A stretch of 55,094 nt of DNA from the IMG/VR virus record IMGVR_UViG_3300020074_000024, positions 1 through 55,094 of that record. The stretch is one strand, 5' to 3'. The position numbers and the translations under genes are program-made. The DNA comes from a virus (Duplodnaviria; Caudoviricetes). Positions 864 to 55,092 of the stretch are shown here, piece by piece. Under the pieces are notes generated by a model. That model was given only the letters and a program-made list of their open reading frames with translations. It was not told where the DNA came from and searched no databases. Every line of letters begins with the position of its first letter. The first letter of the stretch is position 1.

Positions 864-892
864 AGTATAGCATAAAGTCGCCATTTTGTCAA
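864..892 (-). promoter_or_regulatory. sigma70-type promoter TTGACA-N17-TATACT with extended -10 TG
   Basis: Plus strand agtata 864-869 and tgtcaa 887-892; just upstream of RBS/ATG 846. Confidence 0.8.
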
Positions 893-38810: not shown

Positions 38811-40226
38811 TTATCGTGGCGGAGAGGTCTGAACTGGCGACCAATCCTCCCATCCACCGCACGGCCCGTACGTGTACGGGAGCTGTGCGTATGCAGCCGG
38901 ATTCGTGGGTGGCCTGCCTCCGAAGAAGTACGGGTCACCCGGCTTGGGCTGCATCGGCGGGATGTTGAATGGCGCACAAACGTCCGTGATTCTACCCTGC
39001 AACCAAGGCGTCCGGAGAACCATGCGCGCCTTGGCATAGACCGTCTCGTTGAAACACTCGTTCACATTCTTGCTGTGGGTCAGGAAGCGCCCACCGTCTG
39101 TCACCATCGCGCCCTGGACAAGCCTGTCCTGCGGAATGCCTGCCAGCGTACTGGCAAAGTCCTGGTGCTCCATATACAGGGCCCGACCGCCGCCAACACG
39201 CCTGGTCAGCACGAAGATGTCTGAGCAGAAGAACGGCGCTTCGGATGTCTGTGGTATCCAGTCATTCGTCAAGATACTCACCGGAATACCGTCCACCTCG
39301 AAGATACCCTGGCCGAACGTGCCGGCAGTAGCGATTCGCGCCCGTTCCCTCTGGGACTCTAGCGGGTTGACGTTCACCTCGTTGTACTGCTGCCCCTGGC
39401 ATGGCCCGCAGCCGCAGGCCACGAAGTCAATCAGGGCGTCTCGCATCAAGGACGTCATAACCAGCGCGATGTCGTCAGGAGCAACCCCGCCCAAGAAGCG
39501 GGCCCTTGTCCTGATGCGCCGCACGATGTCCCTGATGTAGTCACATATGCTGTTGTTCATGGCATTGGCGCCCCACTGCACGATAAGTGGCTCGGCGTCC
39601 TGGCAGCGCGCCCCTGTCCGGTAGTCAATCACCGGCGTGCTGATGAGGCGCTGAAGCCCGTCAAAGTGCAAGGCGCTTGTCTGCCGGTTGCCAATGACGA
39701 GCATCCTCTCGTATGCCTGGCGCAAAACGAAGCTGGCCAGGCTTATCTGCCACATGCGCTCGTCTGTGATTCGCTGGTTTGCGCTTGGCCCGCGTATCAC
39801 GTATCGCGGCTCAATGTCGCATCCCCGCAAGCCCAACTGAAGCAGGCTGAGGTCTGCGCCTGAGAAGGACATCTCGCCAAAACAGTAGAGTAGCTCGCAC
39901 TTGCCATGCTCTACCCTGGGCGAGTCCTCGCAGGGGCCCTCGCGTTCCCACACAGGGCTGTTCGCAGACGTCCCTTGCGGCCCAATCCAGCCCATCAGCT
40001 TGACCGGGTGGGGGTCAACATCGCTGCCCTCCGTGCCCAACCAGGTGCTCAGCATGTCGTCGGTGATAAGAGTAGATATCAACTCGTTGCCACCACAATA
40101 GCTGAACATCCCCTGGCCGTATATCCATGTCTGCGGCTGCAACAGGGCAGTGCCAGCCGCCACATTCACCTTCTCTCGCTCGAGGTAGCCCTTGATGGCC
40201 TCAAGCAGTCCAGTCTCAATGCTCAT
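38811..40226 (-). CDS. Major capsid protein
   Basis: Follows protease/scaffold; ATG 40226 (MSIETG); G.....HFDGL and DGIPV HK97-fold-like motifs; followed by a hairpin. Confidence 0.8.
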   Translation of the reverse strand: MSIETGLLEAIKGYLEREKVNVAAGTALLQPQTWIYGQGMFSYCGGNELISTLITDDMLSTWLGTEGSDVDPHPVKLMGWIGPQGTSANSPVWEREGPCEDSPRVEHGKCELLYCFGEMSFSGADLSLLQLGLRGCDIEPRYVIRGPSANQRITDERMWQISLASFVLRQAYERMLVIGNRQTSALHFDGLQRLISTPVIDYRTGARCQDAEPLIVQWGANAMNNSICDYIRDIVRRIRTRARFLGGVAPDDIALVMTSLMRDALIDFVACGCGPCQGQQYNEVNVNPLESQRERARIATAGTFGQGIFEVDGIPVSILTNDWIPQTSEAPFFCSDIFVLTRRVGGGRALYMEHQDFASTLAGIPQDRLVQGAMVTDGGRFLTHSKNVNECFNETVYAKARMVLRTPWLQGRITDVCAPFNIPPMQPKPGDPYFFGGRPPTNPAAYAQLPYTYGPCGGWEDWSPVQTSPPR

Positions 40227-40227
40227 G

Positions 40228-41322
40228 TCATCCACCCCTCGCTGCCCTGTGCTCCTGAATCGCCTTGATGCTGTCCGCGAGATTGCGGGGCTTGGGAGCC
40301 TCGGCAGGTGCGGGAGCCTCCTTCTGGGCCTCCCCCCTGGTAGCGAACCACACCTCGCGCTTAGGAAGCGCCTCAAGTGCAGCCTTGATTTTTTCGTCGT
40401 CATTCTCTTTCAGTGCCTTGACCTGGTCGGCAAGAACAACCAAAGCGTCCTTCACCGAGTCAAGGTCTGCGGGCTTCAGCAAAGCGGCGACTTTTCCTGC
40501 AATAGCCTCAATGACGTCGTCACTGAGCACGATGCTCTGCACGGTCTGCTCTTCTTTGCTTTGCAAGCCCGCCAGCTCAGCGGCTTTGTCCCTGGCCTCC
40601 ACGGCCTCCAGAAAAGCCTTGGCTTGTTCAGGCCCAACCAGCTCACTGAGCGCGTTTCTCTGCTCGTCAGTCATCTCCATCTCCTCTGGGGCCGAAAACG
40701 AAGTCAGCACATTGGCCGCCCTGCCCTTTGGTAACAGGCTCAGCTCCACCGTGCGGAACCAGTCGTAGACCCCATCTGTGAATTGCTTCTCGTCCCACAT
40801 GAACCGGTGGGACATGCCCCAGTCACCCCAGTCCTGAATGGCGCTGGCGATTTTGAGGCCCCACTCGTTCAGTGTTCCAGCGGCCACTCCGAAGCGGCCC
40901 TGAATGTCCATCCACTCCACCGTGCCGATGGGGTGAGGCATGTGCCAGAACCAAAGCTCCGGCAGCCTGTGTTCCTTGTTCGCCCATTCCGTGTACTCGG
41001 CAATGGCTGCGGTGGAAAGTATTTCTCTGTCCCTGTCCTCAAAGGCGTTAGTCCACGCCCCGACCCACTTGTTGCCGATGGCCTTGAAGCCAACCTGCTT
41101 TTTGTGCTCCTTGACCCAAGCCTCGGCTTTCTCCTCGTCCCATTTCTCCTTGTCAAACAGGTAGGTCTGAATTGTCGTGGACTCCTCGCCTTCGAGCTTG
41201 CCAACCACCGCCTTAATGCCCTTCTCCTCAGACACATCAATCGTGCGGAAAGAATCCTTCTCAAAATCCTCAGGGTCGCGGACTCTCACCCGCACATAGT
41301 TATCCGTTGTTTCTACCGGCAT
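40228..41322 (-). CDS. Prohead protease/scaffold with extra N-terminal domain
   Basis: NAFEDRDRE, LWFWH...IG, GMSHRF, ELSLLP..RAAN..T (HK97-type protease), then an acidic coiled-coil scaffold. Confidence 0.82.
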   Translation of the reverse strand: MPVETTDNYVRVRVRDPEDFEKDSFRTIDVSEEKGIKAVVGKLEGEESTTIQTYLFDKEKWDEEKAEAWVKEHKKQVGFKAIGNKWVGAWTNAFEDRDREILSTAAIAEYTEWANKEHRLPELWFWHMPHPIGTVEWMDIQGRFGVAAGTLNEWGLKIASAIQDWGDWGMSHRFMWDEKQFTDGVYDWFRTVELSLLPKGRAANVLTSFSAPEEMEMTDEQRNALSELVGPEQAKAFLEAVEARDKAAELAGLQSKEEQTVQSIVLSDDVIEAIAGKVAALLKPADLDSVKDALVVLADQVKALKENDDEKIKAALEALPKREVWFATRGEAQKEAPAPAEAPKPRNLADSIKAIQEHRAARGG

Positions 41323-41999
41323 AGCTCCTCCCAGGGCCATTCATCGAGCAGGCCCTTGGCTTCCACTTGTCTGTCGGCAAGGCAGTGTTGCTTCTGCTTG
41401 CCAAGTCGCATGTACACGTCCCCGTCCCTGGCGCTGCGCTTGAGGCGATGGACGTGCAGCCCGTGATAAGGCCGTTTGTAGCTGTTGAAGTAATGAAAAA
41501 GCGCCTTGTCATGCAGCGCGAGGTCAAATGACTCAGGGCATTCAAAAGGGTACTCGCCGTTCCAAGCGTCTGTCAACGGGAAGAGCGCCGCCCGGTTGAA
41601 CACGTCGTCAAGCAAGATAAAGTCCTGGCCCTGCTGTTCAATCGTCACCAGCTTGGTCATGCCCATTCGCGCAGGCATGTCCTGGGACAGTATCTCGTCA
41701 ATGCCGCTGGGATAGTATATCTCGTCGCCGTCCACCTGGAAGCCCCAGGTGAACCCCTCCCTGATCGCCTGCTGCGCCAAATCACCACGAATCCCGCCGA
41801 GCTTTCGGGCATCGCACTCCCCGTACTGAGTCAGCCTGGCCCAGGGCTCAAACTGCTGAACACTCGCCACGGTAGCATCGGTTGACCCCGTATCGCCAAC
41901 AAAGCAAGCGGAGAACCTGTGCAGCGAGGAGAGAATGGCGTGAATGAAAAACTCCTCGTTGCGTATCATCAGCAAGGGAGCTATACTTGCGGGAACCAC
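41313..41999 (-). CDS. Glycosyltransferase family 2
   Basis: MIRNEE, VGDTGSTDAT, QVDGDE. Confidence 0.85.
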   Translation of the reverse strand: MVPASIAPLLMIRNEEFFIHAILSSLHRFSACFVGDTGSTDATVASVQQFEPWARLTQYGECDARKLGGIRGDLAQQAIREGFTWGFQVDGDEIYYPSGIDEILSQDMPARMGMTKLVTIEQQGQDFILLDDVFNRAALFPLTDAWNGEYPFECPESFDLALHDKALFHYFNSYKRPYHGLHVHRLKRSARDGDVYMRLGKQKQHCLADRQVEAKGLLDEWPWEELCR

Positions 42000-42683: not shown

Positions 42684-43150
42684 TTGACCTCCTTCCACTC
42701 GCAGCCAGTGTATCGCCAGCGGGTGTCCGGGTGAGCCTTGACCATCTTCGCCAAAGTCCCGGAGTCGAGCTTCCAAGACAAGCTCGGAGATAGCCACGCA
42801 ATGACGCCCCACTTGAACGCCTGGTATCTCTCCAGGGCGAACTGCTTGCCGTACTCCTTGCACAGGATTGCCAGGGCCAATTGCGCGGGCCCACTGCCCC
42901 CGTATCCCCAATTGAACTCAGTCGAGTGGTTGACCACATTGCGGAACAGGGGCAGGGGCTCGCCGTTGACCGTCACCTCTTTGTCGAAGGCCCCGTGTAC
43001 GATACCTTCGTACACGTTGCCAAATGTGTATGCCCCATCAGCGAAGCCGGTGGCGTCGCCCACATCAGGCATTTCCGGCTCAAACTCCCAAGGCTCCGGC
43101 ACAACCGAGTGGTCAGCGTCCGGGTCATGAAGATAAGAGATACCGTCCAT
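42680..43150 (-). CDS. DUF6166-like protein
   Basis: NHSTEFNWGYGGSGPAQLALAIL...YQAFK..VIA signature. Confidence 0.75.
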   Translation of the reverse strand: MDGISYLHDPDADHSVVPEPWEFEPEMPDVGDATGFADGAYTFGNVYEGIVHGAFDKEVTVNGEPLPLFRNVVNHSTEFNWGYGGSGPAQLALAILCKEYGKQFALERYQAFKWGVIAWLSPSLSWKLDSGTLAKMVKAHPDTRWRYTGCEWKEVK

Positions 43151-43745: not shown

Positions 43746-43963
43746 TCCTCCATAATCTCGGCTCTGAGGTACGCCCCGTCATACCTCTGCGGCGCACCTT
43801 CGATGGCTTTGCGTACAGCGGCCTCGTCCTTGCGGTCTATGTCGCGCAGCATGTTATCCAGGATTCGCCTGGCAATTACCGTATCTGCCTTAAGGGGCGG
43901 GAATGTGACAAAGCCAAGTGTCACCGGCCCGTCCGCGCTTGTTGTTTCAAAACGAATCCGCAT
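43742..43963 (-). CDS. 73-aa protein, candidate immunity/antitoxin of the portal-fused kinase
   Basis: Overlaps the portal-kinase stop, GGAGGG RBS; function inferred from position only. Confidence 0.6.
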   Translation of the reverse strand: MRIRFETTSADGPVTLGFVTFPPLKADTVIARRILDNMLRDIDRKDEAAVRKAIEGAPQRYDGAYLRAEIMED

Positions 43964-46259
43964 AGCTAGACCCTCCTTCAGTGTACAGATTGAACCCTCC
44001 TACCTGAATCATATTTTGAAAATTGTCCCACATAGCATCAACATCATGCTTTTTAGGGCTTTTTGACACAAGCGTTAACTTGCCCACGGATTGCTTGAAT
44101 TGCTTCTCAGTTATCCCTTTCCATCGCGCGAGCTTTTCGGGCGTAAATTGGGCGAACTCGCGTCGGTTGCTGGCGGGATAACGCACCCATAGCGCCACAA
44201 CATTCTTCCCGCTCACTATCTTGCGCCCGTTGTCGGCGTGCCCGTGGTCTATGGCCCACAGCTTGCCCTTACTGTCAAATATGTAATTGCCGCCATGCCT
44301 GTCGCCGTTCCCCATTACAATGTCCAGCGCAAGCATATCCTCAGCCCTGCTCCTGTTGTCCTTCAAGGACTTCTCCAGGTTGTCAACGTAGTCGGCAACT
44401 TTGGCGTTCTCAACAAAATACTGCACCGTCCCTTTGTTCCCCTGAAACGTCAGCTCCTTTGTTTCCGGGACAACGGGGTCATCGGGGTTAAGCATCTTCG
44501 CTACCCTGTATGCGGCAATTTCATTGTTTGCATTGTGTCCATATGCATTGTCCGCGTCCTTGTAAACCCCAGAGCCGTCACCGGCCAGCCCAACAACATA
44601 CGAGTAGTTGATGCCCCCACCGAGCTTCTTCGACGTAGCGACCTCAGTGGCCCTGCCAAAGGCGGTCCCTCTAGGCGCAGCCACCGCCGCTGCGTGACCG
44701 GCAGGATTGCGATGAATCCCGCCACCGGGCCGGCTTCCTCCCCTGTGTCCAGGCCTGCCTTCATGTCCCCAGTTACCGCTGCCAGGGCCACCCTTCTCGC
44801 CAAGCAATCTCTCGGCCTTGCGGTCGAGCAAGCTACCAAAGGCCTCATTCCATGAGCGAATCGAGGCAACAATTTGCCTTTTCCGCCACTCAGGCAATTC
44901 CTCATAGTCCGCTGCCTTTGTCTCCTCTGGAGCTTCGCTAGACACGTCGGTCACGGTCTCCTCAGTCTCCTGTGGGACAATCACCGCCGCGTCCAGTTCC
45001 TCCTCAGTCAAACAGTTCTCCCTGGCCAGGATGCGCAGCGCAACCTCTTTGGGCAAAAGTCCCGTCTCCATACCCTGCGGTGGCGACCAGAGCTTGGTCA
45101 CATAGTCGCCCCAAGCCCCTGCCAGTTGGGCTCTGTGCAAATCCCCGGCGTCGTCCTGCTCATCAAAGACAAACTCTGCCCCTTCGGGGAGCACTTCGTA
45201 GTTGAGCGCCCTCTCCAGGATACGCAGAATCTCACCAACGCCCTTCCCCTGCCCTTTGAGGTGTTGAACCTCACCGACAGCCTTGGTGGAGCCGGTGTGT
45301 GTAAACAGCCAAAACTCCCCGGCGTCCACGCCAGCGCAAGCGGACAGTGTCTTCACATACGTCTCAACTACATCCTTGCGGGTGAAGCTAGCAGGCGGCT
45401 CGCTGAAGGGAACCCACTTCACATCCACGCCCGGCCCCATCTCGTTGTTAGAAGCCAGCCACAGAAGTTTCTTGAATGTCAAGTCTCGGCTGCCCCTGTT
45501 CGCCTTCCACAAGTCAAGGGCGTCCTTGACCTGCTGCTGGTTCATGCCCGTCACCGCCGCAATGCCCTCAGGCGGCATATCGTCCAGGGCGTCTTCTTCG
45601 TACTTGTGTAAAGCAAGAAGCAGCGAGATGGTGCGGATAGCCCTGCTCACCAAAGACACGCCCGTCCAGTGAGTGGCCTCTACATCGGAGGGCATAGACG
45701 TTCTGTGAACCACGTCCCTGCTCCGCAGGGGAACAACCCTTCCAGCCGATGTGTAGTACACCAAGTCGCCGTCAGTGCCAGGAGGAAACCCCGACTCGCC
45801 CCTGAAGCGACAGTTAGCGATGTCCAGATAGGCAAGCCCTGTTACAGGGCCGTTCTTGCTGGTGCGGCCCTTCTCAAACAACGCCCCCCTGTCCTGAGTC
45901 AAAAAGCAGCGCACCCACCGCTTCAGTTCTGTGTCCCAGCCGGCGCCCTCTCCAGCAGACAGCAACATCTCCGTGGCCTGCTGAGCCAGGCGCGGCTTGC
46001 CAGTGACCTTCCATGCCGTGGTCGCCACCCTGCTGACGATGGTGTAAATCACCCCTGCCAGCAAAGGCTCCTCCAGCCAAACGTCCCTGAGCCGCTTGTC
46101 TCTCTCCACCGTCCCTGCTGGCGGCAATTGCCCGACCTTGCCCGCCAACATGGACATCATCATGAATGCCTGCCCGACATCCCCATCAAAGCGGCTCTGG
46201 ACGAACTCAGGCCGTTTGGCTTTCGTTAGTTGCCTCTGTATCCATTCCTGATAGCCCAT
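43947..46259 (-). CDS. Portal protein with C-terminal HipA/PI3K-like kinase domain
   Basis: Portal position after TerL with about 450-aa portal-like body; C-terminal LGGGIN, GVYK, NEIAAY, DRHGGNY, AIDHG kinase motifs. Confidence 0.85.
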   Translation of the reverse strand: MGYQEWIQRQLTKAKRPEFVQSRFDGDVGQAFMMMSMLAGKVGQLPPAGTVERDKRLRDVWLEEPLLAGVIYTIVSRVATTAWKVTGKPRLAQQATEMLLSAGEGAGWDTELKRWVRCFLTQDRGALFEKGRTSKNGPVTGLAYLDIANCRFRGESGFPPGTDGDLVYYTSAGRVVPLRSRDVVHRTSMPSDVEATHWTGVSLVSRAIRTISLLLALHKYEEDALDDMPPEGIAAVTGMNQQQVKDALDLWKANRGSRDLTFKKLLWLASNNEMGPGVDVKWVPFSEPPASFTRKDVVETYVKTLSACAGVDAGEFWLFTHTGSTKAVGEVQHLKGQGKGVGEILRILERALNYEVLPEGAEFVFDEQDDAGDLHRAQLAGAWGDYVTKLWSPPQGMETGLLPKEVALRILARENCLTEEELDAAVIVPQETEETVTDVSSEAPEETKAADYEELPEWRKRQIVASIRSWNEAFGSLLDRKAERLLGEKGGPGSGNWGHEGRPGHRGGSRPGGGIHRNPAGHAAAVAAPRGTAFGRATEVATSKKLGGGINYSYVVGLAGDGSGVYKDADNAYGHNANNEIAAYRVAKMLNPDDPVVPETKELTFQGNKGTVQYFVENAKVADYVDNLEKSLKDNRSRAEDMLALDIVMGNGDRHGGNYIFDSKGKLWAIDHGHADNGRKIVSGKNVVALWVRYPASNRREFAQFTPEKLARWKGITEKQFKQSVGKLTLVSKSPKKHDVDAMWDNFQNMIQVGGFNLYTEGGSSYADSF

Positions 46260-46461
46260 GCTTCCCCCAACGTTCGCTGTATCTCGCTTCCCTATCCTCG
46301 TCTATGTCCAGGCCGTGTAAAAGACAGATTTGCTCAGCCGCCCAGTCCTCTACCCGCCAGCCGAAGCGCTCGAATGAAAATAACAGACGATACCACGTCA
46401 ACACAACCCAAGCCGCAACCCCGCTGAGTAAGAATCTAATTTTGCTATTAGATTTACTCAC
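46207..46461 (-). CDS. small membrane-anchored hypothetical protein
   Basis: GTGA overlap with the TerL stop; N-terminal hydrophobic helix. Confidence 0.55.
   Translation of the reverse strand: MSKSNSKIRFLLSGVAAWVVLTWYRLLFSFERFGWRVEDWAAEQICLLHGLDIDEDREARYSERWGKHGLSGMDTEATNESQTA
46435..46452. promoter_or_regulatory. Palindromic site TCTAAT-N6-ATTAGA
   Basis: AATCTAAT TTTGCT ATTAGATT just downstream of the TerL stop. Confidence 0.7.
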
Positions 46462-47747
46462 GCCATGAATCCCCCACCGCCGCCATCGTCGTCCATCGCG
46501 TAGCGGAGGGCGTCAACCCGGTGGAATGTCTCCTTGTCCTGTATCTTTTCCGTCGGCTTGCCGTCAGTCCCCAAGGTACGCTGGTATGATTGTACGTCAT
46601 CTATCAGCCCAGGACAACTACGGAAGACGAACAGCCTATCTTGCCCCCACAGCGCGTTGAGCCTATCTATCCCCGATTCTACTGATGACACAACAGGCGG
46701 GTCAAGCGGGACCCCACACGCTCTCCAGTCCATCCGGGACTGTGTTTCGGATTTACTGCCGCCCTTCCAGACAACGACTCTCTCAGCCCGTGCGTGTTGC
46801 AGTGCCCTGGCCGAATGCTCAGCCGTTGTCAGCCCGCCGGAAAGTGTCTCGCGATACACGTAGAATGCCCTGCGCTCCCTGTCCTCAGCCACCCATACCA
46901 AGGCAGTGTTCGCACCGCCAAAGTCCACCCCTACTCGACGTGGCCACTCAGGTGGGACGTCGAAGGGCTCGACTGCGTGCCGCGCTTCCTGAAACTTGCT
47001 GAACACTAGCCACTCAGGGCGCTCGAATTGCCCGTCGTAGAACATCCTGAACTTGGAGTGGCTCACAGTGCTTCTGGCTCTCTCGTACTCAGCGGCGGGA
47101 AAGGCCGGATTGACTATACTTGGCGCTTGACAGACAAAGTAATTGGGGTCTCCACTCCTGGCCCTGTCCAAGACTTCGTGCTTCAGCCAATTCACCGCAT
47201 AAGGAGTCGTGCCCCCGAAAAACCTCCCCTGGGAGAGGCTAAGGCGTCGCAAGATAGCCTGCCAGGAGTCCAGCCTGAAAGACGGCTGGCCTATCTCGTC
47301 ACCAATCACCGCCTGAACGGTAGCTGACTCTAGCCCGCCCGGACTTTCGGCAGACCGCAGGATGACGCGGCCCCACATGGGGTCACTCGCCCGTTCAGCC
47401 CAAAATCTCCCAGTGTTCGGGTCGCGCAGTTCCAGCACTTTGTCCCCAGACCAATACTTCCCCATCTTCATGCCGTACACAAACACTTCCAGCATCGCCG
47501 GTAGCATCTTGAGCTTGAACAGGTCGTAGGTCGCCGTGACCGCCAGGTAGTCCCCCTTGCCCCTGCCCTTGTAGCCGTCAAGCCCGTATATCTCCCTGTA
47601 GAGAATCCAGGGGAGAAAAGTAGTCTTCCCGCCCTGCGTCCCGATAATCAGGAATGAAAAACGGGCCTGCGAATCCCAAAGCGACTCCTGGGCCTTGTGC
47701 AACCTGAGGCGAACCCCGCCGTCCTCGAATCCCCATAACGGCTTCAC
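46458..47747 (-). CDS. terL: Terminase large subunit
   Basis: Walker A GTQGGKTT, Walker B VIGDE, coupling motif GTTP, RNase H-like GVDFGG and HRVDALRY. Confidence 0.93.
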   Translation of the reverse strand: MKPLWGFEDGGVRLRLHKAQESLWDSQARFSFLIIGTQGGKTTFLPWILYREIYGLDGYKGRGKGDYLAVTATYDLFKLKMLPAMLEVFVYGMKMGKYWSGDKVLELRDPNTGRFWAERASDPMWGRVILRSAESPGGLESATVQAVIGDEIGQPSFRLDSWQAILRRLSLSQGRFFGGTTPYAVNWLKHEVLDRARSGDPNYFVCQAPSIVNPAFPAAEYERARSTVSHSKFRMFYDGQFERPEWLVFSKFQEARHAVEPFDVPPEWPRRVGVDFGGANTALVWVAEDRERRAFYVYRETLSGGLTTAEHSARALQHARAERVVVWKGGSKSETQSRMDWRACGVPLDPPVVSSVESGIDRLNALWGQDRLFVFRSCPGLIDDVQSYQRTLGTDGKPTEKIQDKETFHRVDALRYAMDDDGGGGGFMA

Positions 47748-48187
47748 GTGGGCCTTTCCACAAAGACTGGCATGGAGAGGCCAGGAATGACCTCTCCATC
47801 CGCGTCAGCCATGCGGTGCTGGGCCACGGTGGGCGCGTCCAGCCCCAAGAGCCTGGCCCTGCGCTCCATGATTCGCAGAACGCGGTCAATCGCCCCAAGG
47901 TTTCCGTCTCGAACCTGCCCCCAGACAGAGAGCAGCATACGGTCTAGCCGCTCAATCTCTATCTTCCTGACCTCTTGGGCAGGCTCTTCGATGATGGCCT
48001 GCATCGCCCTCACGACCGCCTTGTGGGCCCCGGTGGCGCTTGCGTAACGCAGTTTGCTCGCAATATCCTCGTAGGTGGCCCCCGCCTTTCGCAGCTCCAA
48101 CGCCTGCCTCTGGCGTTCCTTCGCCTGAATCCTCCGAGGACTTGACGCGCTCTCCCCTTTCCCTCGTCCCGGATTTATACTCGCCAT
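47744..48187 (-). CDS. terS: Terminase small subunit
   Basis: ALELRKAGATYEDIA HTH, ERRARLLGLDAP; coupled to TerL. Confidence 0.85.
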   Translation of the reverse strand: MASINPGRGKGESASSPRRIQAKERQRQALELRKAGATYEDIASKLRYASATGAHKAVVRAMQAIIEEPAQEVRKIEIERLDRMLLSVWGQVRDGNLGAIDRVLRIMERRARLLGLDAPTVAQHRMADADGEVIPGLSMPVFVERPT

Positions 48188-48240
48188 GTATGCCCTCTCA
48201 CCTGCCCTTCGTAAGCAGCAAGTAACGGTTTACCCACTGG

Positions 48241-49599
48241 TCAATCATCCAGCGAGTGGAAAGTATAGAATACGTCGCCATCCACAATGCGCGTAGGCCG
48301 CAACGCGCCTTGAAAATACTGGTAAGGCGAGCGCTCCCTCTGGGGGTCGTTCCATAGGTCGCGCAGAAAGTCGGCCCAAGTGTAATATTTGCGCTTATGC
48401 CGCTTGAGCGGCCCGGCGGGGACAGGAACCATGTTGTCCCAGGGCACAGAGTAGGCCCATGGCGGCGTTATGTCCTGCGGGCCAATCTCCGTGCCAGTGG
48501 CTTTGGCTCGCAGCAATTGATTCGTGGCGCTCTCGCGCTGCCAATTGCCGAAGACTGGGTCGTCAGGCATGATTCCGCAACAGCAGCCGGTATCGCCGAG
48601 TTCCTTCCAGACCGGGTCACTAATGCCCACGACCATGCCGTGCCTGTGCGCAACGTCGCGCACGTCATGCATGACAGCCCGCGTCCAGGCCGCAGCGGGC
48701 CGGACACATGCCCTTTGGCCGAACTTGGCGTAAGTACCCAGGTGGTCAAACCCCGTTACGTCACTCAAGAGCTTCCACCGGGCGCGCACATCGTTTGTGG
48801 GCGCACCCGGGGTGAAGGCAACCTCGTAGGAAACGGCCCTTGCGCCCGCCTCTGCCGCCGCTGCGATCAACTCGCGGTATGCATACGGGTTCGCCGGATG
48901 GCCCCAAGTCACGCCTGCCAGCATGGGCCGCAAGCGCAGTGACGTCTTCACGCCGATGCCGGACAGGGCCTTCATGGTCGCTAGTCGCTCCGAGGGCACC
49001 GGGGCCTTGCGGTCAATCTTACGCACTAGGGAATCGTCCGGGCTGACGATACTGAACGCAACCCAGAACAAGTGCGGGGCGCGTTCTAGCACCCGCAGAT
49101 AGTCAGGCTGGGCCAAGACGACGCCCTTTGTGGAGATTCTCGTCGGCTGGTTGTATTTGATTGCTAGTTCTAGATACCGCAATAGCCAGCCCTGCTGCTG
49201 CTCGATGTAATCGCATGGGTCGTTGAGTGCGCCTAACTGCACCGGACCAGGGTAGCCGTTACGCCTGTCGTCATACTTGAGAGCCTTGCGCATGACGTCA
49301 AACCGCTTGCCCTCGCCAGCGAAGAGGTTCTCTATAGAGCGCAAGCTCGTCTGCCCGACGCCCCATCCAGTACTCTGCCGGTGCGACAACAGGTTGTTGG
49401 AAAAACAGTACAGGCAAGCAAAAGAGCAGAACGAATGGCTGTCTATGCTTACCGGCAACGCACAGTCAAAACCGTCGCTAGTAAACCGGATGCCGTCGTA
49501 GGCCCGCAATCGTTGCCGAACCGGCGCGCAGTATGAGCCATCGCAACGCCGACAAGTCGCGCAAACGTTCATTGCCTCATGGCGCGGATTCTGTAGCAT
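48241..49599 (-). CDS. Radical SAM enzyme (SPL-like)
   Basis: CSFACLYC (CxxxCxxC), DP, ISTK, ERL, LRLRP; additional Cys clusters (CCCG). Confidence 0.85.
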   Translation of the reverse strand: MLQNPRHEAMNVCATCRRCDGSYCAPVRQRLRAYDGIRFTSDGFDCALPVSIDSHSFCSFACLYCFSNNLLSHRQSTGWGVGQTSLRSIENLFAGEGKRFDVMRKALKYDDRRNGYPGPVQLGALNDPCDYIEQQQGWLLRYLELAIKYNQPTRISTKGVVLAQPDYLRVLERAPHLFWVAFSIVSPDDSLVRKIDRKAPVPSERLATMKALSGIGVKTSLRLRPMLAGVTWGHPANPYAYRELIAAAAEAGARAVSYEVAFTPGAPTNDVRARWKLLSDVTGFDHLGTYAKFGQRACVRPAAAWTRAVMHDVRDVAHRHGMVVGISDPVWKELGDTGCCCGIMPDDPVFGNWQRESATNQLLRAKATGTEIGPQDITPPWAYSVPWDNMVPVPAGPLKRHKRKYYTWADFLRDLWNDPQRERSPYQYFQGALRPTRIVDGDVFYTFHSLDD

Positions 49600-50212
49600 A
49601 TTTCCTGACCGCCTTGGCGAACCAGTCGGGGTCTAGTTCGTGCACGCCGCGTTGTAGCGCTGGGGCTAGCAACAGCGACAATTCAGCAAATAGTTCTGGC
49701 CGCCCGTAGAACGTTACGTAGAACCAATTCTCGTCTTTGGTCGTACAGCCGCGCTGTTCCGTGAACTCGGGCAGAATGTCCGGCAACTCAATTGGGCCAG
49801 CAAGCTCTGCCCCTAGCTCAGCGTCCGTCCATAGACCCCTTAGGTCTATCTCCTTGCCAATATCCGCCAGCACCTCCGCATCCCACTCCGCCAGTTCCGC
49901 TGTGCGGTTGTCGTACAGTGCCAGCTTGGCCTTCTGTTCCGGTGTCAATCCCTTGCGCCGCACGGCCACAATCGTCTCGCCGTCAGCATCTACCACCTGG
50001 ACCCGCTCGATACCCGCCTGGGCTGCCGCTTCGACGAGGCCATTTCCAGCCAGGATCGTGCCATCCTCGTCAATGACGATAGACCTCGCTGCACCAACCT
50101 CGCCGAGTGCCTTCTCTATCATGCCGATGTTGCGCGCGTTGTGCTTCCGCGCGTTGCGCTTGTCCGGCCTCAGTTGCCCGATGCGCTCAATCGCTTCGAG
50201 TGACTCTGCCAT
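49577..50212 (-). CDS. ParB/Srx-like N-terminal domain protein
   Basis: LRPDKRNARKH, SIVID...ILAGNG, LALYDNR.AE..WD. Confidence 0.8.
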   Translation of the reverse strand: MAESLEAIERIGQLRPDKRNARKHNARNIGMIEKALGEVGAARSIVIDEDGTILAGNGLVEAAAQAGIERVQVVDADGETIVAVRRKGLTPEQKAKLALYDNRTAELAEWDAEVLADIGKEIDLRGLWTDAELGAELAGPIELPDILPEFTEQRGCTTKDENWFYVTFYGRPELFAELSLLLAPALQRGVHELDPDWFAKAVRKYATESAP

Positions 50213-50360
50213 TCACGTCCTCATCGTACAAATGCCGCTTGGAAAACTCCAACCGCTTCGCTTCGCCCCAATCGCCCACCGGGCGCAGGTAGCCAACGAC
50301 GCGGGAATACACCTCACAGGGAATGCGCCGCTGCTCTAGTTGCTCAAGTTCGTCATTCAC
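50187..50360 (-). CDS. 57-aa stand-alone NrdD C-terminal (glycyl-radical loop)-like protein
   Basis: Below track cutoff; GTG 50360 with GAGGG RBS; IPCEVYSRVVGYLRPVGDWGEAKRLEFSKR. Confidence 0.75.
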   Translation of the reverse strand: MNDELEQLEQRRIPCEVYSRVVGYLRPVGDWGEAKRLEFSKRHLYDEDVNGRVTRSD

Positions 50361-50407
50361 TAATCGCCCTCGTTATCGTGTCTAATGCACACAACGCCTG
50401 GAATCAT

Positions 50408-51160
50408 CTAACACCCCGCTATAGGCACACTGACCTTGCTGTTCAAATAGTTCTTTCCCTTGGCACTTGCCCCACCAGACATGCCCCCTGGCCGATAAAT
50501 TTTTGTGCCCCACTTCTTCCGCATCCTCTCAATGCCAGCGAGTTCGGTTTCCTTGGTACGCTGCGATACGAAGCCGCCAGGCATTTTCCCGTGGTCATGG
50601 ACGTAGAAGTAGCGGTTTATGCGGAGGGTCTTGCGGTACGCCCTGATGTTCTGTAGCCAAAAATCATAGTCGTCTTTGCCCAAAACGCTCTCATCATAGC
50701 GTAAAACCGGCTCCAAGTGTCCGACGAAAGGCCCAAGCACGGGCGCCAATAAGTTGAATGGCCTGTACGTATAATAGCCGAGCGGGTCACTGTTCAGGTT
50801 TATTCCCCACAACCTGACCCCAAACTGCTCGGCTAGCAGGAAGCCCGCCAAGATGATGCTCTGTAGCCTGTCAGGCTCTACGGTGTATTGTGCGCCACCC
50901 TCCCACATGCCGATTCTGCTGATGTCATCGTCCAGGATAAGCGTCCATTTGCAGGGAGACCTGTCCAGTATTGCGTTTTGCTTCCTGCCCAGGTTGCCAT
51001 CGCATTCGTCGGGAATGGTAATGATTCTGTCCCCGTAGTGGCGACGGTATTCATCCCCCTGAGACTCAGGAACCCAAACGTGGGCGAATGGCGCTACCTC
51101 CAAGGTACGCACGCGCCCTGCGCGCCCAAACGACCTGATGGCAACGTGGATGTCATCCAT
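50408..51160 (-). CDS. TAGT/GREB1-like glycosyltransferase
   Basis: IRSFGRA, ILDDDI, KDDYDFWLQ, GG motifs; ATG 51160 overlapping the ParB-like gene stop. Confidence 0.75.
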   Translation of the reverse strand: MDDIHVAIRSFGRAGRVRTLEVAPFAHVWVPESQGDEYRRHYGDRIITIPDECDGNLGRKQNAILDRSPCKWTLILDDDISRIGMWEGGAQYTVEPDRLQSIILAGFLLAEQFGVRLWGINLNSDPLGYYTYRPFNLLAPVLGPFVGHLEPVLRYDESVLGKDDYDFWLQNIRAYRKTLRINRYFYVHDHGKMPGGFVSQRTKETELAGIERMRKKWGTKIYRPGGMSGGASAKGKNYLNSKVSVPIAGC

Positions 51161-51821
51161 CGAGCAGCCCCAGTAGCACGCTGGCCGGCAGCACGCGCCC
51201 CAAGCCAACGTGCTTTATAGTCTTGCCCTTCACCGTGCCAGTCATGGCGGGCGTTATGCCGAGCTTTTCCACCGCCACCTGCCAATCAAACTCGTTGTCA
51301 AAGTAAAACACCAGATAGTCCTGGCGCTCAAAAAGCTCGGGGCTGATGGTTAGCTCCGGTTTGTCAGCCTCAGCAGCCGGGGCGGCCTCGCTGGACAAGC
51401 TCTGTAAAAGCGACCGCACGGCAGCGCTCTGTGTCTCGATGTCTCCAAGTAGCTCGGCGACTTTGGCATCATCGCGGGATGAAAGGGCGCTAATCGGGTC
51501 TAGCGTGGCCAGTACCAGCCTCTCATCCTCAGGGCTAAGGTTTACGTATGTCACAGGGAGGGTCTTCTGCCCACCGCGCATGGCCAACACCACCCGCATA
51601 TGCCCGTCCACAAGTGTCTCGACGCCGCGCTCCCCGTCCGGCCATTCCTCGCCAAGACGCCTGTTTATGATGATGTTCTGAACGACGCCGACCTCGTCAA
51701 AAATGTCCCGCATAGCAGCCTGCTGCTCCGCTGGATGAACGCGCCAATTGTTCTCGTTTGCCATCACCTGGTCAACGGCCACGTCCCCATAGCCGACTAT
51801 CCTATTCTTCCATTGCTCCAT
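51153..51821 (-). CDS. ParB/Srx-like N-terminal domain protein
   Basis: NWRVHP..Q, GVVQNIIIN, LVDGHMRV, LATLDP. Confidence 0.8.
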   Translation of the reverse strand: MEQWKNRIVGYGDVAVDQVMANENNWRVHPAEQQAAMRDIFDEVGVVQNIIINRRLGEEWPDGERGVETLVDGHMRVVLAMRGGQKTLPVTYVNLSPEDERLVLATLDPISALSSRDDAKVAELLGDIETQSAAVRSLLQSLSSEAAPAAEADKPELTISPELFERQDYLVFYFDNEFDWQVAVEKLGITPAMTGTVKGKTIKHVGLGRVLPASVLLGLLDG

Positions 51822-51825
51822 CTTT

Positions 51826-51843
51826 TCTCATTTCAAAATTAGT
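51826..51843. promoter_or_regulatory. Degenerate palindromic site TCTAAT-N6-ATTAGA (2 mismatches)
   Basis: TCTCAT TTCAAA ATTAGT spanning the PDE stop up to the ParB-like ATG. Confidence 0.5.
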
Positions 51844-52687
51844 AATAACCAAGCGCGGTTAGCCTTGCGTTGGGCGCGAGTTCATCCGCCTCTTTTGCGC
51901 CTGAATGAAAATCCGCGTACTCGAAGCCGAAGATGACAAAAATCTTCTCAGCAACGTGGTGAGTCATGCCTACATAGCCGCCGCGCTTGTAGTTGTCACT
52001 GTCCCACAGAACACCGTCCTTGGTGTGGTTTGTTCCGCAACGCTCAAACCCATGGTCGCTCACAACAATCAGCCTGCGGGCAATGTCCCTGGCCATAACG
52101 ACTATCTTGGCCGCCAAAGAACAGACAAACAGCCACGCCTCATCAGTGTAGAAGGAATGCAGGATGCGGTCTGGGAAGGTGAGTCCAAGACAGCCCAAGT
52201 CTCCCTTTGCGTTATTCCCGAACCAATCCAGCAGGAACAGAGCATCGTCGGTTGCCTTTTCAGCACAGAATGAAAAACCGGCCTTCTTGAGGCTGTCGCT
52301 CCAGCCATCAATGGTCATCGGCTGAGCCATCTGCGCCAGGTCGCCGCGTTCCTGCCAGCACACTTCAAGCGCTTCGGGAAGTGTAGCGAATGGCCCTGGG
52401 AAGCCCGACACAAAAATCGGCTTTCTGCCAACCGTTGCTATCGGCATATTGCACACCGTCCCAGGCACAGGCAGCCTGTTCCAAAACCACCTGCCAGCCC
52501 ACTCGGTCGCCAAGCGTCCGTCGGGGCCATCGCCCCATACGCTCGTTACCCCATGACGTTCAGCGGTCATACCTGTGTAGATGCTTTGCCAGGCAGGGCC
52601 GCTAACCGGCAGTGGGGAGTGGAGCCTTCCCGCGCCGTCTAGCGCCGTCACGTCGAGGCCGTCCAGCCCCAGTATCATCAACTTCAT
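51839..52687 (-). CDS. Alkaline-phosphatase-superfamily phosphodiesterase/nucleotide pyrophosphatase
   Basis: ILGLDG, SGPAWQSIYTG...HG, DRILH, VSDHGF, H...G, RL.ALGY. Confidence 0.85.
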   Translation of the reverse strand: MKLMILGLDGLDVTALDGAGRLHSPLPVSGPAWQSIYTGMTAERHGVTSVWGDGPDGRLATEWAGRWFWNRLPVPGTVCNMPIATVGRKPIFVSGFPGPFATLPEALEVCWQERGDLAQMAQPMTIDGWSDSLKKAGFSFCAEKATDDALFLLDWFGNNAKGDLGCLGLTFPDRILHSFYTDEAWLFVCSLAAKIVVMARDIARRLIVVSDHGFERCGTNHTKDGVLWDSDNYKRGGYVGMTHHVAEKIFVIFGFEYADFHSGAKEADELAPNARLTALGYY

Positions 52688-52755
52688 CCTCGTCCTCCCA
52701 GGACGCCGCAAACGCTCCGTTCAAGTGCCTCAAGCGATTCCTTGCGCTCTGTCAT
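52684..52755 (-). CDS. 23-aa coupling mini-ORF
   Basis: MTERKESLEALERSVCGVLGGRG; ATGA overlaps at both ends. Confidence 0.4.
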   Translation of the reverse strand: MTERKESLEALERSVCGVLGGRG

Positions 52756-53075
52756 TGAAAGCACCTTCCTGAAAACTCAAGTGCCTGCGGGCCCTGCTCC
52801 CCCTGCAAACCCGGTCCCTCCGGCCCCTCGCCATAGAGCATCTGGCCGCAGTAGGGGCAGTAGCTGACCAGATAGTTGTACTCTGCATCCCACAGCATCC
52901 AGATACCACCATGCTCCACAACGGGCAGCAACCCGCCGCTCAGCGCTCCCTGGCCCCGCGTAACCTCCCTCAGCCAACGGCGAGCAGAGGCGCACGAATG
53001 CACGCGAAACCCCTTCTCGCTCAGCCTCTGCTCCTCAGCCGCATCCTCCGACTCCAAGACATCCAGATCAATCAT
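52752..53075 (-). CDS. hypothetical protein with HxC...YCPYCG
   Basis: Coupled ORF; short G-x-x collagen-like tail. Confidence 0.65.
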   Translation of the reverse strand: MIDLDVLESEDAAEEQRLSEKGFRVHSCASARRWLREVTRGQGALSGGLLPVVEHGGIWMLWDAEYNYLVSYCPYCGQMLYGEGPEGPGLQGEQGPQALEFSGRCFQ

Positions 53076-53278
53076 GCCCCGCCCTTGGACGCCTCACCGA
53101 CCGCCTCGAATTGTAAGCCGTTATCGCCGTCTATCGGGGATGAGTGCCTGTTCCGTCCGGCGCGAATATCGTCTGGTATTCCGTCAGGAAAGGCGAAACA
53201 CCGAGGCCATGCCGCTAGGTAGATACACCCACGGCAGACGGGTTCAGGGATGTCGCCTGTGTCTGGGAAGGCGGTCAT
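53072..53278 (-). CDS. small Cys/His protein (CxxC...C.AFP.GIP..I..G...H..P..GD.G..F), candidate immunity protein
   Basis: ATGA overlap with the effector gene; motif recognised by eye from small genes that follow phage head-associated toxin domains. Confidence 0.65.
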   Translation of the reverse strand: MTAFPDTGDIPEPVCRGCIYLAAWPRCFAFPDGIPDDIRAGRNRHSSPIDGDNGLQFEAVGEASKGGA

Positions 53279-55092
53279 TTCTTTATCCCGTCAATGGCAA
53301 TCCAGTCGCCACCCTCGTTCAACTCCTGGATAGAGATGCCCCCACAGGGAGTCCAGTTGTCTCCGTCCGCTGAGACAAACAAGCCGCCGTCCTCCAGTTT
53401 GATATACAACGCCTGCCTCTGCTCCTCGCCGTAAACGCGCGCCCAGTACAACGTCTCCATAGCCTTCACCTTCCATGCCAGTGTTTCAATTTGAGGGGGC
53501 GGGGGCACTGTTCTCTCCACGTTTCTTTGCATCTGCACAAGGTATTTCCCCCACCGGGAGTCGCCTGGCGGCAATGCTCGTTGCCTTTGGTATGTTTTGT
53601 GGTTAAGAGTCTCCTTGGCGTGGTATGATTGCCTTGTGTGGAATTGCACCTCGAAGATGGCCCCCGTCTTCTTGTCCTGCCAATTTGTGTTAAGTCCCCA
53701 GTAGCCATAATTCTTTGTGCCCCAAAAGTTGCGGAGTTTCTTGTCATAGACCTCAAGTCCCGCAGCTCGCAGTTGCTTGAATATCTCCTTCGTTCCTGAC
53801 ACATAGTTTTCGGGCGATAGCCGTACTGTGTAGCGCAGAGCGTCGTGTACCCTATGGTAAGCTATGGCCTCCGGCACTCCATGCGACACCTCCCATAGGG
53901 CCTTACGCTCGATGCCTTCGGCAGTTTTGAAGCGGTGGTCGAGCCCGACAAGCTCCCCTCCCCCCGCCGCCGTTGCCCCTGATAGCGCGGCAGTTATTTC
54001 AGGCTCCGCTTCCGTGACGCGGGACAATAACGCCTCGGCGTTCATTGGCAGTCTGTGGTGTCCCCCTCCGGGCCTGCTCCCGCCCACATGCGGCGGGTTG
54101 CCTTCGTGCGCCCAGTGACCGGAGCCAGCCCCTCCCTTAATGACCTCAGATTGTACGGTCTGCATCAATAATGAAAAAAGTTCCTCAGACTCGCGGGACT
54201 GGAAGCCCTTTTTCCCTGCCACTGTCAACGCCCATGTTTCCGCAAACCACTCATGGAAGCCATCGCGGGCCCGTGCCGTTGCGCCGTGCTGTCTCGCAAA
54301 TGCGTCCCAAGTCGTCTTTTGGATAGTCCCACCTGCCGCCAAAAGCCCCGCCACCTGGGAGAACGTCTCCCGATGTTTTGGGTCGCGTAGATTTTTCAGG
54401 GCCCTATACCCAACCGCGTGGCCGAATTCATGCCTGGCGCACCCTTCGTAGGGGTCAGAAAATGCGTAGCTGCTGTGTTCGCGCCACAGTTCGTCCCGGC
54501 CATCCTCCATCAACTTGCCAACCCTGGCCAGGACGGCGCCCTCCATGCGGTCAGCATCGCCCATTCTCTGCTGGTGCTCTTCCGTGGTTATCAGCCCTTT
54601 CTGGAGTGCGTCGCCGGCCTTTGCACGCACCCTGTCTGCCACGGCTCCGCCATCGTTCATGAGTCTGTTGGCCTCGTCATCCCAAGATTCGTGCGGCCCA
54701 ATGATAATAGTACCGTCAGCTTTGTAGTGCCCTTGCCCTAACACGTCCCCCTGGTCAAAAATGAGCGTGCCATTCCAGTCCGACTCATGGTCCATGTTCA
54801 TCTCCTGAACCATGCCTTGCATCCGGCGGCGGACGTCCTCAGGTATCTCCCTGGGCCCGTCGCGAACCTCGGTATGATAGCGGAGCGCGGAGTCAGCAGG
54901 AGTGCCCGGCGCGCCCCCGCCCCCCGTCCACTGCCCACCTTCCGGCGCCCCTGCCGGCGCACGCGGTTGGTTCGGGTCGAACTTAGCGACGGCATCCTGC
55001 GCTTCCTTCACCGCCTGCTCTGCGCCTATCATGTCTACCCACGCCCTGCCCGCTTCCAGTGATTTCTGTGCCGCATATACCGAACCGGGCAT
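53275..55092 (-). CDS. Multi-domain (polyvalent) effector: zincin metallopeptidase + RelA/SpoT-like nucleotidyltransferase (may extend past the right edge)
   Basis: KFDPNQPR..G...GGQWT; HEFGH...EWFAE; RFK...RK, DALRYT, Y.GLN, FEVQFHT..S...KE. Confidence 0.8.
   Translation of the reverse strand: MPGSVYAAQKSLEAGRAWVDMIGAEQAVKEAQDAVAKFDPNQPRAPAGAPEGGQWTGGGGAPGTPADSALRYHTEVRDGPREIPEDVRRRMQGMVQEMNMDHESDWNGTLIFDQGDVLGQGHYKADGTIIIGPHESWDDEANRLMNDGGAVADRVRAKAGDALQKGLITTEEHQQRMGDADRMEGAVLARVGKLMEDGRDELWREHSSYAFSDPYEGCARHEFGHAVGYRALKNLRDPKHRETFSQVAGLLAAGGTIQKTTWDAFARQHGATARARDGFHEWFAETWALTVAGKKGFQSRESEELFSLLMQTVQSEVIKGGAGSGHWAHEGNPPHVGGSRPGGGHHRLPMNAEALLSRVTEAEPEITAALSGATAAGGGELVGLDHRFKTAEGIERKALWEVSHGVPEAIAYHRVHDALRYTVRLSPENYVSGTKEIFKQLRAAGLEVYDKKLRNFWGTKNYGYWGLNTNWQDKKTGAIFEVQFHTRQSYHAKETLNHKTYQRQRALPPGDSRWGKYLVQMQRNVERTVPPPPQIETLAWKVKAMETLYWARVYGEEQRQALYIKLEDGGLFVSADGDNWTPCGGISIQELNEGGDWIAIDGIKK

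Follow-up and report, generated by a model that had tools for sequence, protein, structure and literature searches.

The window analysed here is a linear IMG/VR virus record of 55,094 nt (IMGVR_UViG_3300020074_000024) which is about 74% complete, and it raises the question why two of its proteins share a glycine-rich stretch of 29 amino acids (aa). The first copy, KGGPGSGNWGHEGRPGHRGGSRPGGGIHR, constitutes residues 489–517 of a 770-aa open reading frame (ORF) at 43947–46259 on the minus strand, encoding a portal fused to a PI3/PI4-kinase-like domain, and the second, KGGAGSGHWAHEGNPPHVGGSRPGGGHHR, constitutes residues 319–347 of a 605-aa ORF at 53275–55092 (minus strand), which ends in a domain resembling small alarmone synthetases (SAS). 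Both were obtained by translating the minus strand, which carries every gene in this region; a plus-strand reading of the same coordinates yields unrelated peptides. The two stretches are identical at 22 of 29 residues and lie exactly where a first-pass annotation of the sequence had placed them. That annotation had also described the two proteins as otherwise unrelated, and a BLASTP comparison agrees, as the 29-aa stretch is the sole significant match between them (E 3e-11).

Copy 1 of this element, called motif A in the following, corresponds to 44709..44795 (minus strand; a local hmmsearch match extends over residues 488–520) and copy 2 to 54052..54138 (minus strand). The cores, counted from the lysine in front of Gly-Gly, called P1, to the triplet GGS, span 44733–44795 (aa 489–509) and 54076–54138 (aa 319–339). 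A six-frame regular-expression scan of the window found no third full copy, and the partial matches that it gave at 30087–30125, 23795–23833 and 24623–24637 are either a short GSG[NH]W or loose fuzzy hits. The DNA of the two copies differs by many synonymous changes, with short and scattered identical runs, and we therefore conclude that the likeness is kept at the protein level and does not stem from a recent DNA repeat. The answer that we favour, with moderate confidence, is that motif A is a two-part "cut-and-tag" module which marks the cargo domains of phage head-associated proteins.

Distribution, polarity and putative cargo of motif A

A 39-column profile was built from 8 motif copies and searched against 1.84 billion protein-cluster representatives. 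There were 5250 matches at E ≤ 0.001, 848 at E ≤ 1e-10 and 90 at E ≤ 1e-30; the best 150 of the 5250 are proteins of 545–3154 aa with 3–10 matched stretches each. A word-based search with the motif region gave three proteins with 2–3 copies each, one of them fused to Peptidase_S78. With a local re-scan we located 695 copies in 154 of 155 proteins, the exception being P0006, the candidate prohead protease of the window. In the 685 anchored copies the motif begins (percentages of copies) with [K45 L18 R16 A5 E4]-G99-G96-P51-G96-S99-G100-[N65 H23]-[F67 H14 W6 Y6]-G83-H100 and continues with x-G99-R90-P86-G99-x-[V59 R17]-G99-G99-S99, so that the G, S, H, G, R, P, G, G, G and S positions are held at 86–100%. 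Copy 2 of the window is deviant, having N-P-P at the place of R-P-G. In three viral contigs (L106, L117, L119) the start variant E-[VAS]-G-T-[AS]-S-S-G replaces E-G-G-x-G-S-G, the Glu being kept and one residue added. No Pfam family covers motif A, and the commonest families match only 22 of 86 and 8 of 57 motif proteins.

The motif has a clear polarity. Among 152 multi-copy proteins none ends within 15 residues of its last motif and a single one within 30, the median distance being 257 residues, while the first copy is preceded by at most 30 residues in 71 and by at most 15 residues in 26 of these proteins. The segments between copies are domain-sized (median 202 aa, n = 531). IMG/VR yielded 470 candidate stretches, 303 of them confirmed, and 72 loci were retained; these viral loci contain 194 motif ORFs, all co-oriented. 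In many cases the motif opens several separate genes in a row, for example four genes in L022 and six in each of L030 and L048. Such tandem stand-alone genes indicate that motif A belongs to the domain which follows it.

The domains behind the motif are of many kinds. In 86 small motif ORFs twelve families were found, among them ADPrib_exo_Tox (22 ORFs), Zeta_toxin (3) and ART-PolyVal (2) as well as PARP, ATLF, PI3_PI4_kinase, Gln_amidase, ART, GNAT and DRAT with one ORF each. The 57 multi-copy proteins contained ADPrib_exo_Tox (8), ART-PolyVal (6), Phage_Mu_F (4), Peptidase_S78_2 (3) and LPD1 (1). ADP-ribosyltransferases are thus the commonest domains after motif A. BLAST clustering sorted 731 inter-motif segments into 318 clusters; as the clustering was single-linkage and produced one false giant cluster which joined kinase and SAS segments, probably through Gly-rich tails, only the number of clusters is used here. 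Among 111 neighbouring ORFs we found Terminase_6N and Terminase_6C (9 each), Phage_Mu_F (6), Phage_portal_3 (3) and Portal_T4 (2). A profile search with tabulation of the downstream domains had been suggested by the first-pass annotation as a check, and its outcome, diverse effector-type domains in head and packaging modules, is the one which the idea of tagged effectors predicts. The same neighbouring ORFs include ADP_ribosyl_GH (6), NUDIX (4), 2H/2′-5′ RNA ligase-like (3) and Acb1 (2) genes; standing beside motif-tagged ADP-ribosyltransferases, the products of these genes may be antidotes or further anti-defence cargo.

Six of the ten large single-copy motif proteins are portal fusions, belonging to the families Phage_portal, Phage_portal_3 and Portal_Mu, and the Mu-type fusion also matches the P23-45 barrel model. 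What stands behind the motif in these fusions are effectors, topoisomerase IB for instance, and L063, a large single-copy protein without a portal match, has a weak PI3/4-kinase-like match after the motif. The portal–kinase protein of the window is therefore one of a class, and the proposal that an effector can be built onto the portal itself holds for three portal families. Two large motif proteins (L010:7661–11482 and L032:6531–9956) are interrupted by inteins, recognized by Intein_splicing and by Hint with a DUF559/endonuclease insert.

Motif A has come to light in uncultivated material. Searching 185,579 species genomes with a strict DNA pattern for GSGNFGHxGRPG gave 29 stretches, nearly all in metagenome-assembled genomes (MAGs) of diverse phyla, and neither this pattern search nor tblastn against phage records yielded a cultured carrier. 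The tblastn searches of 50,697 phage records with the 39-aa stretch, P0004 (the 770-aa protein) and the N-terminal half of P0005 (the 605-aa protein) did not find the motif; since the low-complexity filter probably masks it, this null result says little on cultured phages. Twelve motif-A strings were not found in a literature of 8.4 million papers, which for this purpose means main texts; the supplements of Iyer et al. might show the motif. Motif A is very widespread, and as a "punctuation mark" of phage head-associated multi-enzyme proteins it is apparently undescribed.

The residue before Gly-Gly and the prohead protease

The P1 residue is uniform within a protein. One and the same P1 is found across all copies in 114 of the 152 multi-copy proteins, the mean majority share being 0.92 as against a chance agreement of 0.27, and the P1 of the N-terminal copy equals the internal majority in 59 of 70 cases. 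Separate motif genes of one contig share their P1 as well. Identity at four-fold degenerate third positions (208 copies, 60 loci) is 0.372 within a locus, 0.300 being expected from composition, and 0.273 between loci. As the identity is so close to composition, the uniform P1 is not the result of DNA homogenization.

The same figures bear on another explanation, namely that the motif is a recombination junction for effector cassettes, comparable to the VENN or Rhs pre-toxin motifs, and has no role in the protein. The motif does bound highly variable domains, as the 318 clusters illustrate, and domain order differs among related motif proteins, both of which would suit a junction. With a within-locus identity barely above composition, and with the short scattered runs shared by the two copies of the window, there is however little to recombine on and the conservation lies at the protein level. 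We regard a pure recombination junction as very improbable indeed.

We first compared P1 with the candidate prohead protease in 37 long contigs. Two contigs encode a Peptidase_S77 of the T4 gp21 type and have Glu at 12 of 12 sites, 11 of which read [LI]-x-E. Strong matches to DUF2213 occur in 13 contigs, with Asp at 45 of 45 sites, and weak DUF2213 matches in two contigs, with Leu or Ala at 21 of 21 sites. Lys is found at 9 of 9 sites in the two contigs with Peptidase_S78_2 and at 34 of 35 sites in nine contigs with a core like that of P0006 (E ≤ 1e-14); weak P0006-like matches were seen in two Met/Lys contigs and one Arg contig. The Peptidase_S78 and ClpP models matched in none of the 37. The prohead protease of HK97 cuts after a Lys in the capsid protein. 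For the Glu class, parts of PMC5694885 report that T4 gp21 and the proteases of phiKZ, 201phi2-1 and SPN3US cut after Glu, T4 Alt being cut at ITE-6 and LTE-619.

The association was then replicated with new contigs chosen by P1 alone, drawn from 99 stretches with the Asp pattern and at least 119 with the Lys pattern. DUF2213 was present in 30 of 32 new Asp contigs of at least 33 kb, including all ten that are at least 90% complete, and in none of 18 new Lys contigs of at least 31 kb. Some of the Asp-type carriers are classed as proviruses. These 18 Lys contigs contained a P0006-like core in five cases (four of four among those at least 90% complete), S78 in five and S78_2 in five (three over the cut-off), at least one of the three being found in 13. 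Taken over all contigs DUF2213 was found in 43 of 45 with Asp, as opposed to two weak matches in 47 others tested. In 18 contigs with the Glu pattern nearly all sites read [LIVM]-x-E. Because some contigs are near duplicates (L014/L020, L072/L073) and clades share both traits, these numbers describe a strong association and should not be taken as numbers of events. Those proteins of the S77 type and with DUF2213 that we read out consist of a protease domain, putative in the case of DUF2213, followed by a charged scaffold-like tail. The first-pass annotation had suggested that the Lys before Gly-Gly is the P1 of a phage protease, and this comparative evidence speaks for it, since P1 is uniform per phage and co-varies with the family of the prohead protease. 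When an S77-type protease domain was modelled in complex with a motif-bearing stretch of 67 aa from its own contig, the score was 0.00, which counts neither way.

In the window Lys is present at both motif A sites and a P0006-type gene is at hand, the match between leader and protease being one of co-variation only. P0006 (370 aa, 40228..41340, minus strand) is composed of a small N-terminal domain (aa 8–80), a protease-like core (aa ~85–215, nt 40696–41088) and a helical C-terminal tail. It has no Pfam, PHROG or NCBIfam match and is thus not assigned to the S78 family; an hhalign comparison with nine S78 sequences gave E 8.5e-4 and a probability of 24%. The family consensus has a near-invariant His133 and the motifs SxGF and E-x-S-x-LP..AAN. 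The AlphaFold2 (AF2) model is poor, with a predicted local distance difference test (pLDDT) value of 52.8 and a helical C-terminal half, and a Foldseek search of PDB with this poor model found nothing at E ≤ 0.001. Structure neighbours in the Atlas are mostly S78/S77 clusters, which we take as a lead only. The gene stands between the portal and the probable major capsid gene, and the protein family co-occurs with P1 = Lys. Of the earlier assignment of a protease to 40228..41322, gene position and the link to Lys thus stand, and a recognizable family does not; that P0006 is the prohead protease is suggested weakly.

The capsid gene is probably the one at 38811..40229 (minus strand), encoding a 472-aa protein with an HK97 fold of the SU10_MCP-like type. 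It has no Pfam match, and the assignment comes from an Atlas lead (feature score 0.97; template-modelling score, TM, 0.5–0.69 to capsid clusters), which fits the gene order portal–protease–capsid.

Residues 8–80 of P0006 (41103–41319, minus strand) make up a small domain of the pattern ..Y-x-R-V-R-V-R-D-P..SFRTI..GIKAV.GK...Q.YLFDKEKW...A..WV.EH. In P0006 it is N-terminal to the core and in relatives C-terminal to the S78 or DUF2213 domain; without a Pfam match here, it appears to be a mobile accessory domain of prohead proteases.

Proteases are also embedded in motif polyproteins. P0008 consists of an S78 domain, an acidic stretch and two motif modules; S78_2, seen above in three of the 57 multi-copy proteins, lies between two copies in a 1429-aa five-copy frame; and a 1578-aa frame with five copies has a P0006-like core in its last module.

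Could the motif stay uncleaved, as a flexible linker or as a peptide docking to the capsid interior, portal, scaffold or DNA, with P1 uniform by ancestry? Being about half Gly and standing between domains it can be likened to the cargo-loading peptides of encapsulins, and the preservation of its universal part across phages with different proteases suits a conserved partner, for example the HK97-fold shell. Uncut portal fusions are moreover tolerated, as the portal fusions listed in the part of Iyer et al. (PMC5512222) drawn on here indicate. A plain linker, however, would not hold ten positions at 96–100%, nor would it be required at N-termini and forbidden at C-termini. P1 has stayed uniform although synonymous sites are near saturation, it fits the protease family and the published specificity, and copies at the N-terminus are still preceded by some 8 residues or more, the last of which is again that P1. 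We consider an uncleaved motif unlikely; a docking role of the tag could be compatible with cleavage.

Two other candidates, a ribosome-stalling (2A-like) reading and intrinsic self-cleavage by an N–O shift at GGS, were rejected as they leave the phage-specific P1 unexplained.

Carriers in the window and known systems

P0004 (43947..46259, minus strand) adjoins the gene of the terminase large subunit (46458..47747, minus strand; Terminase_6C E 1.5e-6). Its residues 112–257 match Phage_portal (PF04860) with E 1.6e-5 and 24.7 bits, below the Pfam cut-off of 39.1; the portal call is supported by the position after the terminase and by the six portal–motif–effector fusions elsewhere. Residues 592–675 belong to PI3_PI4_kinase (PF00454; E 1.1e-8, 35.8 bits, above the cut-off of 27.1), the match spanning GDRHGGN and IDHG. 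The part which would be freed if the motif were cut (aa 518–770, 43950..44708, minus strand) matches PF00454 by itself with E 1.6e-9 and NCBIfam TIGR03843 with E 2.5e-7, the latter below its cut-off. Pfam detects no peptidase domain in P0004.

P0005 (53275..55092, minus strand) comprises a leader of another kind, called type B, a zincin-like domain, motif A and the SAS-like domain. Its ORF starts 2 nt from the end of the record and may therefore be truncated at the N-terminus. No Pfam family matches P0005, and the Pfam RelA_SpoT model itself is without a match; in a relative, P0193, this model gives E 4e-5, below the cut-off. The RelA/SpoT-type (SAS-like) nucleotide pyrophosphokinase domain (aa 351–538, 53479..54042, minus strand) is nevertheless similar to SaSAS (PDB 8vx3, E 4.1e-21) and to the C-terminal region of XopAD in NCBIfam (E 3.6e-26). 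Residues 322–511 match PHROG 7625 "head morphogenesis" (E 2e-16), and by tblastn 128 phage records, including those of Streptococcus, Aggregatibacter and Mannheimia phages, encode MuF/head-morphogenesis proteins whose C-terminal parts match residues 338–548. The zincin-like domain (54139..54924, minus strand) has no Pfam match; its label rests on the sequence HEFGH (aa 221–225, nt 54418–54432) and on the HExxH-bearing relatives P0190, P0191, P0192 and P0194, in which such a domain follows the type-B leader. Of the domains which the first-pass annotation had put next to the motifs, the kinase is thus borne out by Pfam and the RelA/SpoT-like domain by 8vx3, the zincin staying at the level of HEFGH and its relatives.

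In a further explanation the motif is cut by an embedded metallopeptidase (MPTase) or a host protease and not by the prohead protease. In the window, motif copy 2 is immediately preceded by the zincin-like domain, which could cut it in cis. Embedded MPTase domains have been proposed to process polyvalent proteins into units, according to the passages of Iyer et al. (2017, PMC5512222) on which we draw, and HExxH domains are present in P0005, P0007 and four of five type-B relatives (not P0193). Zincin families are found, though, in only few of the 57 multi-copy proteins (ATLF in two; MPTase-PolyVal, DUF6782, M78, M91 and SprT-like in one each), and the 86 stand-alone motif proteins contain a single zincin-type domain (ATLF) and no MPTase-PolyVal. 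The portal–kinase fusion contains no peptidase domain, P1 goes with the prohead-protease family which the genome encodes and fits the Glu specificity of gp21-type enzymes, and a host protease would leave a phage-specific P1 unexplained. Cleavage by such enzymes seems to us quite unlikely.

Polarity, the phage-wide P1, its match with the protease and with known specificity, the head setting and the embedded proteases find their simplest account in the cut-and-tag module. Its first part would be a short, often hydrophobic stretch ending in the lineage-specific residue before Gly-Gly, that is the P side and P1 of a prohead-protease site. The second part, the near-universal 20-residue tag GG-x-GSG-[NH]-[FWHY]-G-H-x-GRPG-x-x-GGS, would stay on the N-terminus of the freed domain. 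In the window the two carriers, portal and 605-aa protein, would become part of the procapsid, by assembly or by loading, and the P0006-type protease would then cut after Lys489 of the portal fusion and after Lys319 of the 605-aa protein. Inside the head this would set free a PI3/4-kinase-like enzyme, in 12 copies per portal, together with an enzyme resembling alarmone synthetases, and both may then be ejected with the DNA. Cleavage with its place and time, packaging, ejection and the job of the universal part we infer from the comparisons given above; the universal part may signal loading or docking, provide a contact on the prime side for a common protease fold or act as an ejection leader.

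Several observations weigh against this account. All carriers are uncultivated phages or MAGs, and the case for cleavage is a comparative one. Six of the 37 long contigs contain no candidate protease, S77 is recognizable in only three of the 18 Glu-pattern contigs, and five other Glu contigs that were tested lack S78, S78_2 and DUF2213 as well as any relative of the S77-type protein of one contig. The association of P1 with protease is phylogenetically structured and comprises far fewer independent events than contigs. DUF2213 would be a protease by its architecture, an N-terminal domain with an acidic scaffold-like tail and an accessory domain shared with S78; hhalign finds no similarity between DUF2213 and S78. 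The protease identity of P0006 is weak for the reasons given (no Pfam family, 24% in hhalign, pLDDT 52.8, empty Foldseek search). A protease site alone leaves 20 near-invariant downstream residues in phages with different proteases unexplained, and copy 2 of the window departs from the R-P-G consensus. Finally, the Javan146 MuF-SAS protein and the PSS2 head protein are without the motif, and such proteins therefore do not need it in general.

T4 offers the closest parallel. According to parts of PMC5694885 and PMC7411985 the T4 internal proteins and Alt have an N-terminal targeting peptide which is removed by gp21. The capsid targeting sequence (CTS) system with gp21 (IPI–III, Alt) thus resembles motif A in that head-borne cargo enzymes have a short N-terminal leader ending in a prohead-protease site; Alt is an ADP-ribosyltransferase, as is the commonest motif A cargo, and the leader of the S77 contigs ends in [LI]-x-E as in T4. 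T4 differs in that the conserved CTS is removed and nothing conserved is left on the mature protein. Motif A on the other hand has an almost universal 20-residue tag after the putative cut, which would be kept, which is the same across at least four protease families and which is used internally up to ten times per polyprotein.

The carriers also resemble the polyvalent proteins of Iyer, Burroughs, Anand, de Souza and Aravind (2017, PMC5512222). These are described as strings of 2–15 effector domains whose genes accompany those for portal, terminase and MuF; their packaging and injection is predicted, and they include portal and MuF fusions, RelA/SpoT and ART-PolyVal domains. With zincin-like plus SAS-like domains in P0005 and portal plus kinase-like domains in P0004, the two proteins of the window share the multi-domain make-up. 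Pfam finds no MPTase-PolyVal, ART-PolyVal or LPD family in either of them; motif-bearing proteins elsewhere do have these polyvalent signatures (ART-PolyVal in 6, MPTase-PolyVal in 1 and LPD1 in 1 of 57). Iyer et al. differ in proposing release by an embedded MPTase, and their main text contains neither "linker" nor "glycine", whereas the boundaries described here carry a defined motif with a P1 that follows the prohead protease. PSS2 gp030, a polyvalent head protein of the MuF–zeta toxin type with no ART match, has related domains and lacks the motif.

A third comparison concerns the MuF polymorphic toxins of temperate phages (Jamet et al. 2017, PMC5576092), whose C-terminal domains include Apk and RelA/SpoT-type domains. 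The C-terminal domain of P0005 is homologous to MuF C-terminal domains and is of the variable toxin kind, and small genes follow the P0005 gene as in MuF toxin loci. An N-terminal Phage_Mu_F domain was not found in P0005 by Pfam; an upstream MuF part is possible because the ORF touches the record end. The Javan146 MuF-SAS protein has, unlike P0005, no Gly-rich motif, and the words "linker", "motif" and "cleav" do not occur in the text of PMC5576092. More distantly, the polyproteins of RNA viruses and retroviruses (Gag-Pol) likewise hold several enzymes per chain with repeated protease sites and possibly the protease as a module. The present case concerns dsDNA tailed phages with a presumed procapsid processing by an assemblin-like serine protease, and unlike in Gag-Pol a long conserved tag follows the site.

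Packaged and injected phage proteins, which serve anti-defence, host take-over or as toxins, are hard to spot from sequence. If the motif marks cargo, thousands of cargo domains, most of them without known family, could be listed at once. The pairing of P1 with protease would predict new specificities, Asp for DUF2213 and Lys for the P0006 type and S78_2, and the polyvalent-protein concept would gain a concrete processing mechanism distinct from the embedded-metallopeptidase proposal. The motif also points to a general means of bringing proteins into phage capsids in laboratory strains. A bolder version, which we put forward tentatively and think doubtful, is that motif A is a universal cargo tag of many tailed-phage lineages, any protein behind the phage's own protease site and GGxGSG[NH][FW]GHxGRPGxxGGS being loaded within a carrier or polyprotein, cut by the prohead protease, which may be a module of the chain as in Gag-Pol, and ejected N-terminus first by means of the Gly-rich tag. 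These would then be polyprotein phages with a readable cargo code; the injected set of an uncultivated phage could be listed from its sequence, and capsids could be designed to take up foreign proteins.

The type-B leader and neighbouring genes

The type-B leader KFDPNQPRAPAGAPEGGQWT (54925..54984, minus strand) forms residues 37–56 of P0005 and follows the pattern [aromatic]-[DN]-P-x-QPR-(APAG..GG|D..G)-[QR]-W-T-GGGG. We found it elsewhere in P0190 (three copies), P0191 and P0192 (two each), P0193 and P0194, and once in P0155; in the five relatives it precedes ART, zincin-like and other domains. It was not found in the other motif-A proteins examined. This leader had been taken for a third cut site because of its initial Lys. 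The residue before it varies in the relatives (A, D, H, K, R or L), even within one protein, and in view of this lack of a conserved Lys a Lys-specific cut at this place is without support.

Directly downstream of the 605-aa gene are two small ORFs of 68 and 107 aa (52752..53278, minus strand), taken as candidate immunity genes in the first-pass annotation; neither matches a Pfam family at E ≤ 0.05. Further towards the terminase, the region 48241–52711 (minus strand) encodes a radical SAM protein, a TET-associated glycosyltransferase (TAGT) and a type I phosphodiesterase/nucleotide pyrophosphatase, together with two family-less ORFs of 211 and 222 aa. The set resembles a DNA-modification cluster; what the SAS-like enzyme makes is in principle a possible substrate of the phosphodiesterase.

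A DUF6166 protein (42680–43150, minus strand; E 2e-19) is encoded between the portal and the protease-like gene. The 799-aa ORF at 32985–35384 (minus strand) contains about 12 tandem units of 17 aa (GTGHTISGVVSGC-Y-YGVNG) and looks like a beta-helical fibre or spike protein. Degenerate repeats of about 70–75 aa (W-A-E-G-A-G-A-I-F-S-A-L-S-S...Y) recur many times in a 3550-aa ORF at 15319–25971 (minus strand), which, coming after tail-like genes, probably encodes a tape-measure protein of very great length. At the other end of the window, positions 1–873 (minus strand) encode a DUF2201_N putative metallopeptidase (E 6e-19) whose Asp/Ser/Gly-rich repetitive tail runs off the contig, and the adjoining gene at 1241–2374 (minus strand) encodes a weakly AAA-like ATPase (AAA_16, AAA_5 and AAA, all below the cut-offs). 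The two genes resemble a VWA/MoxR-type pair unrelated to the motif.

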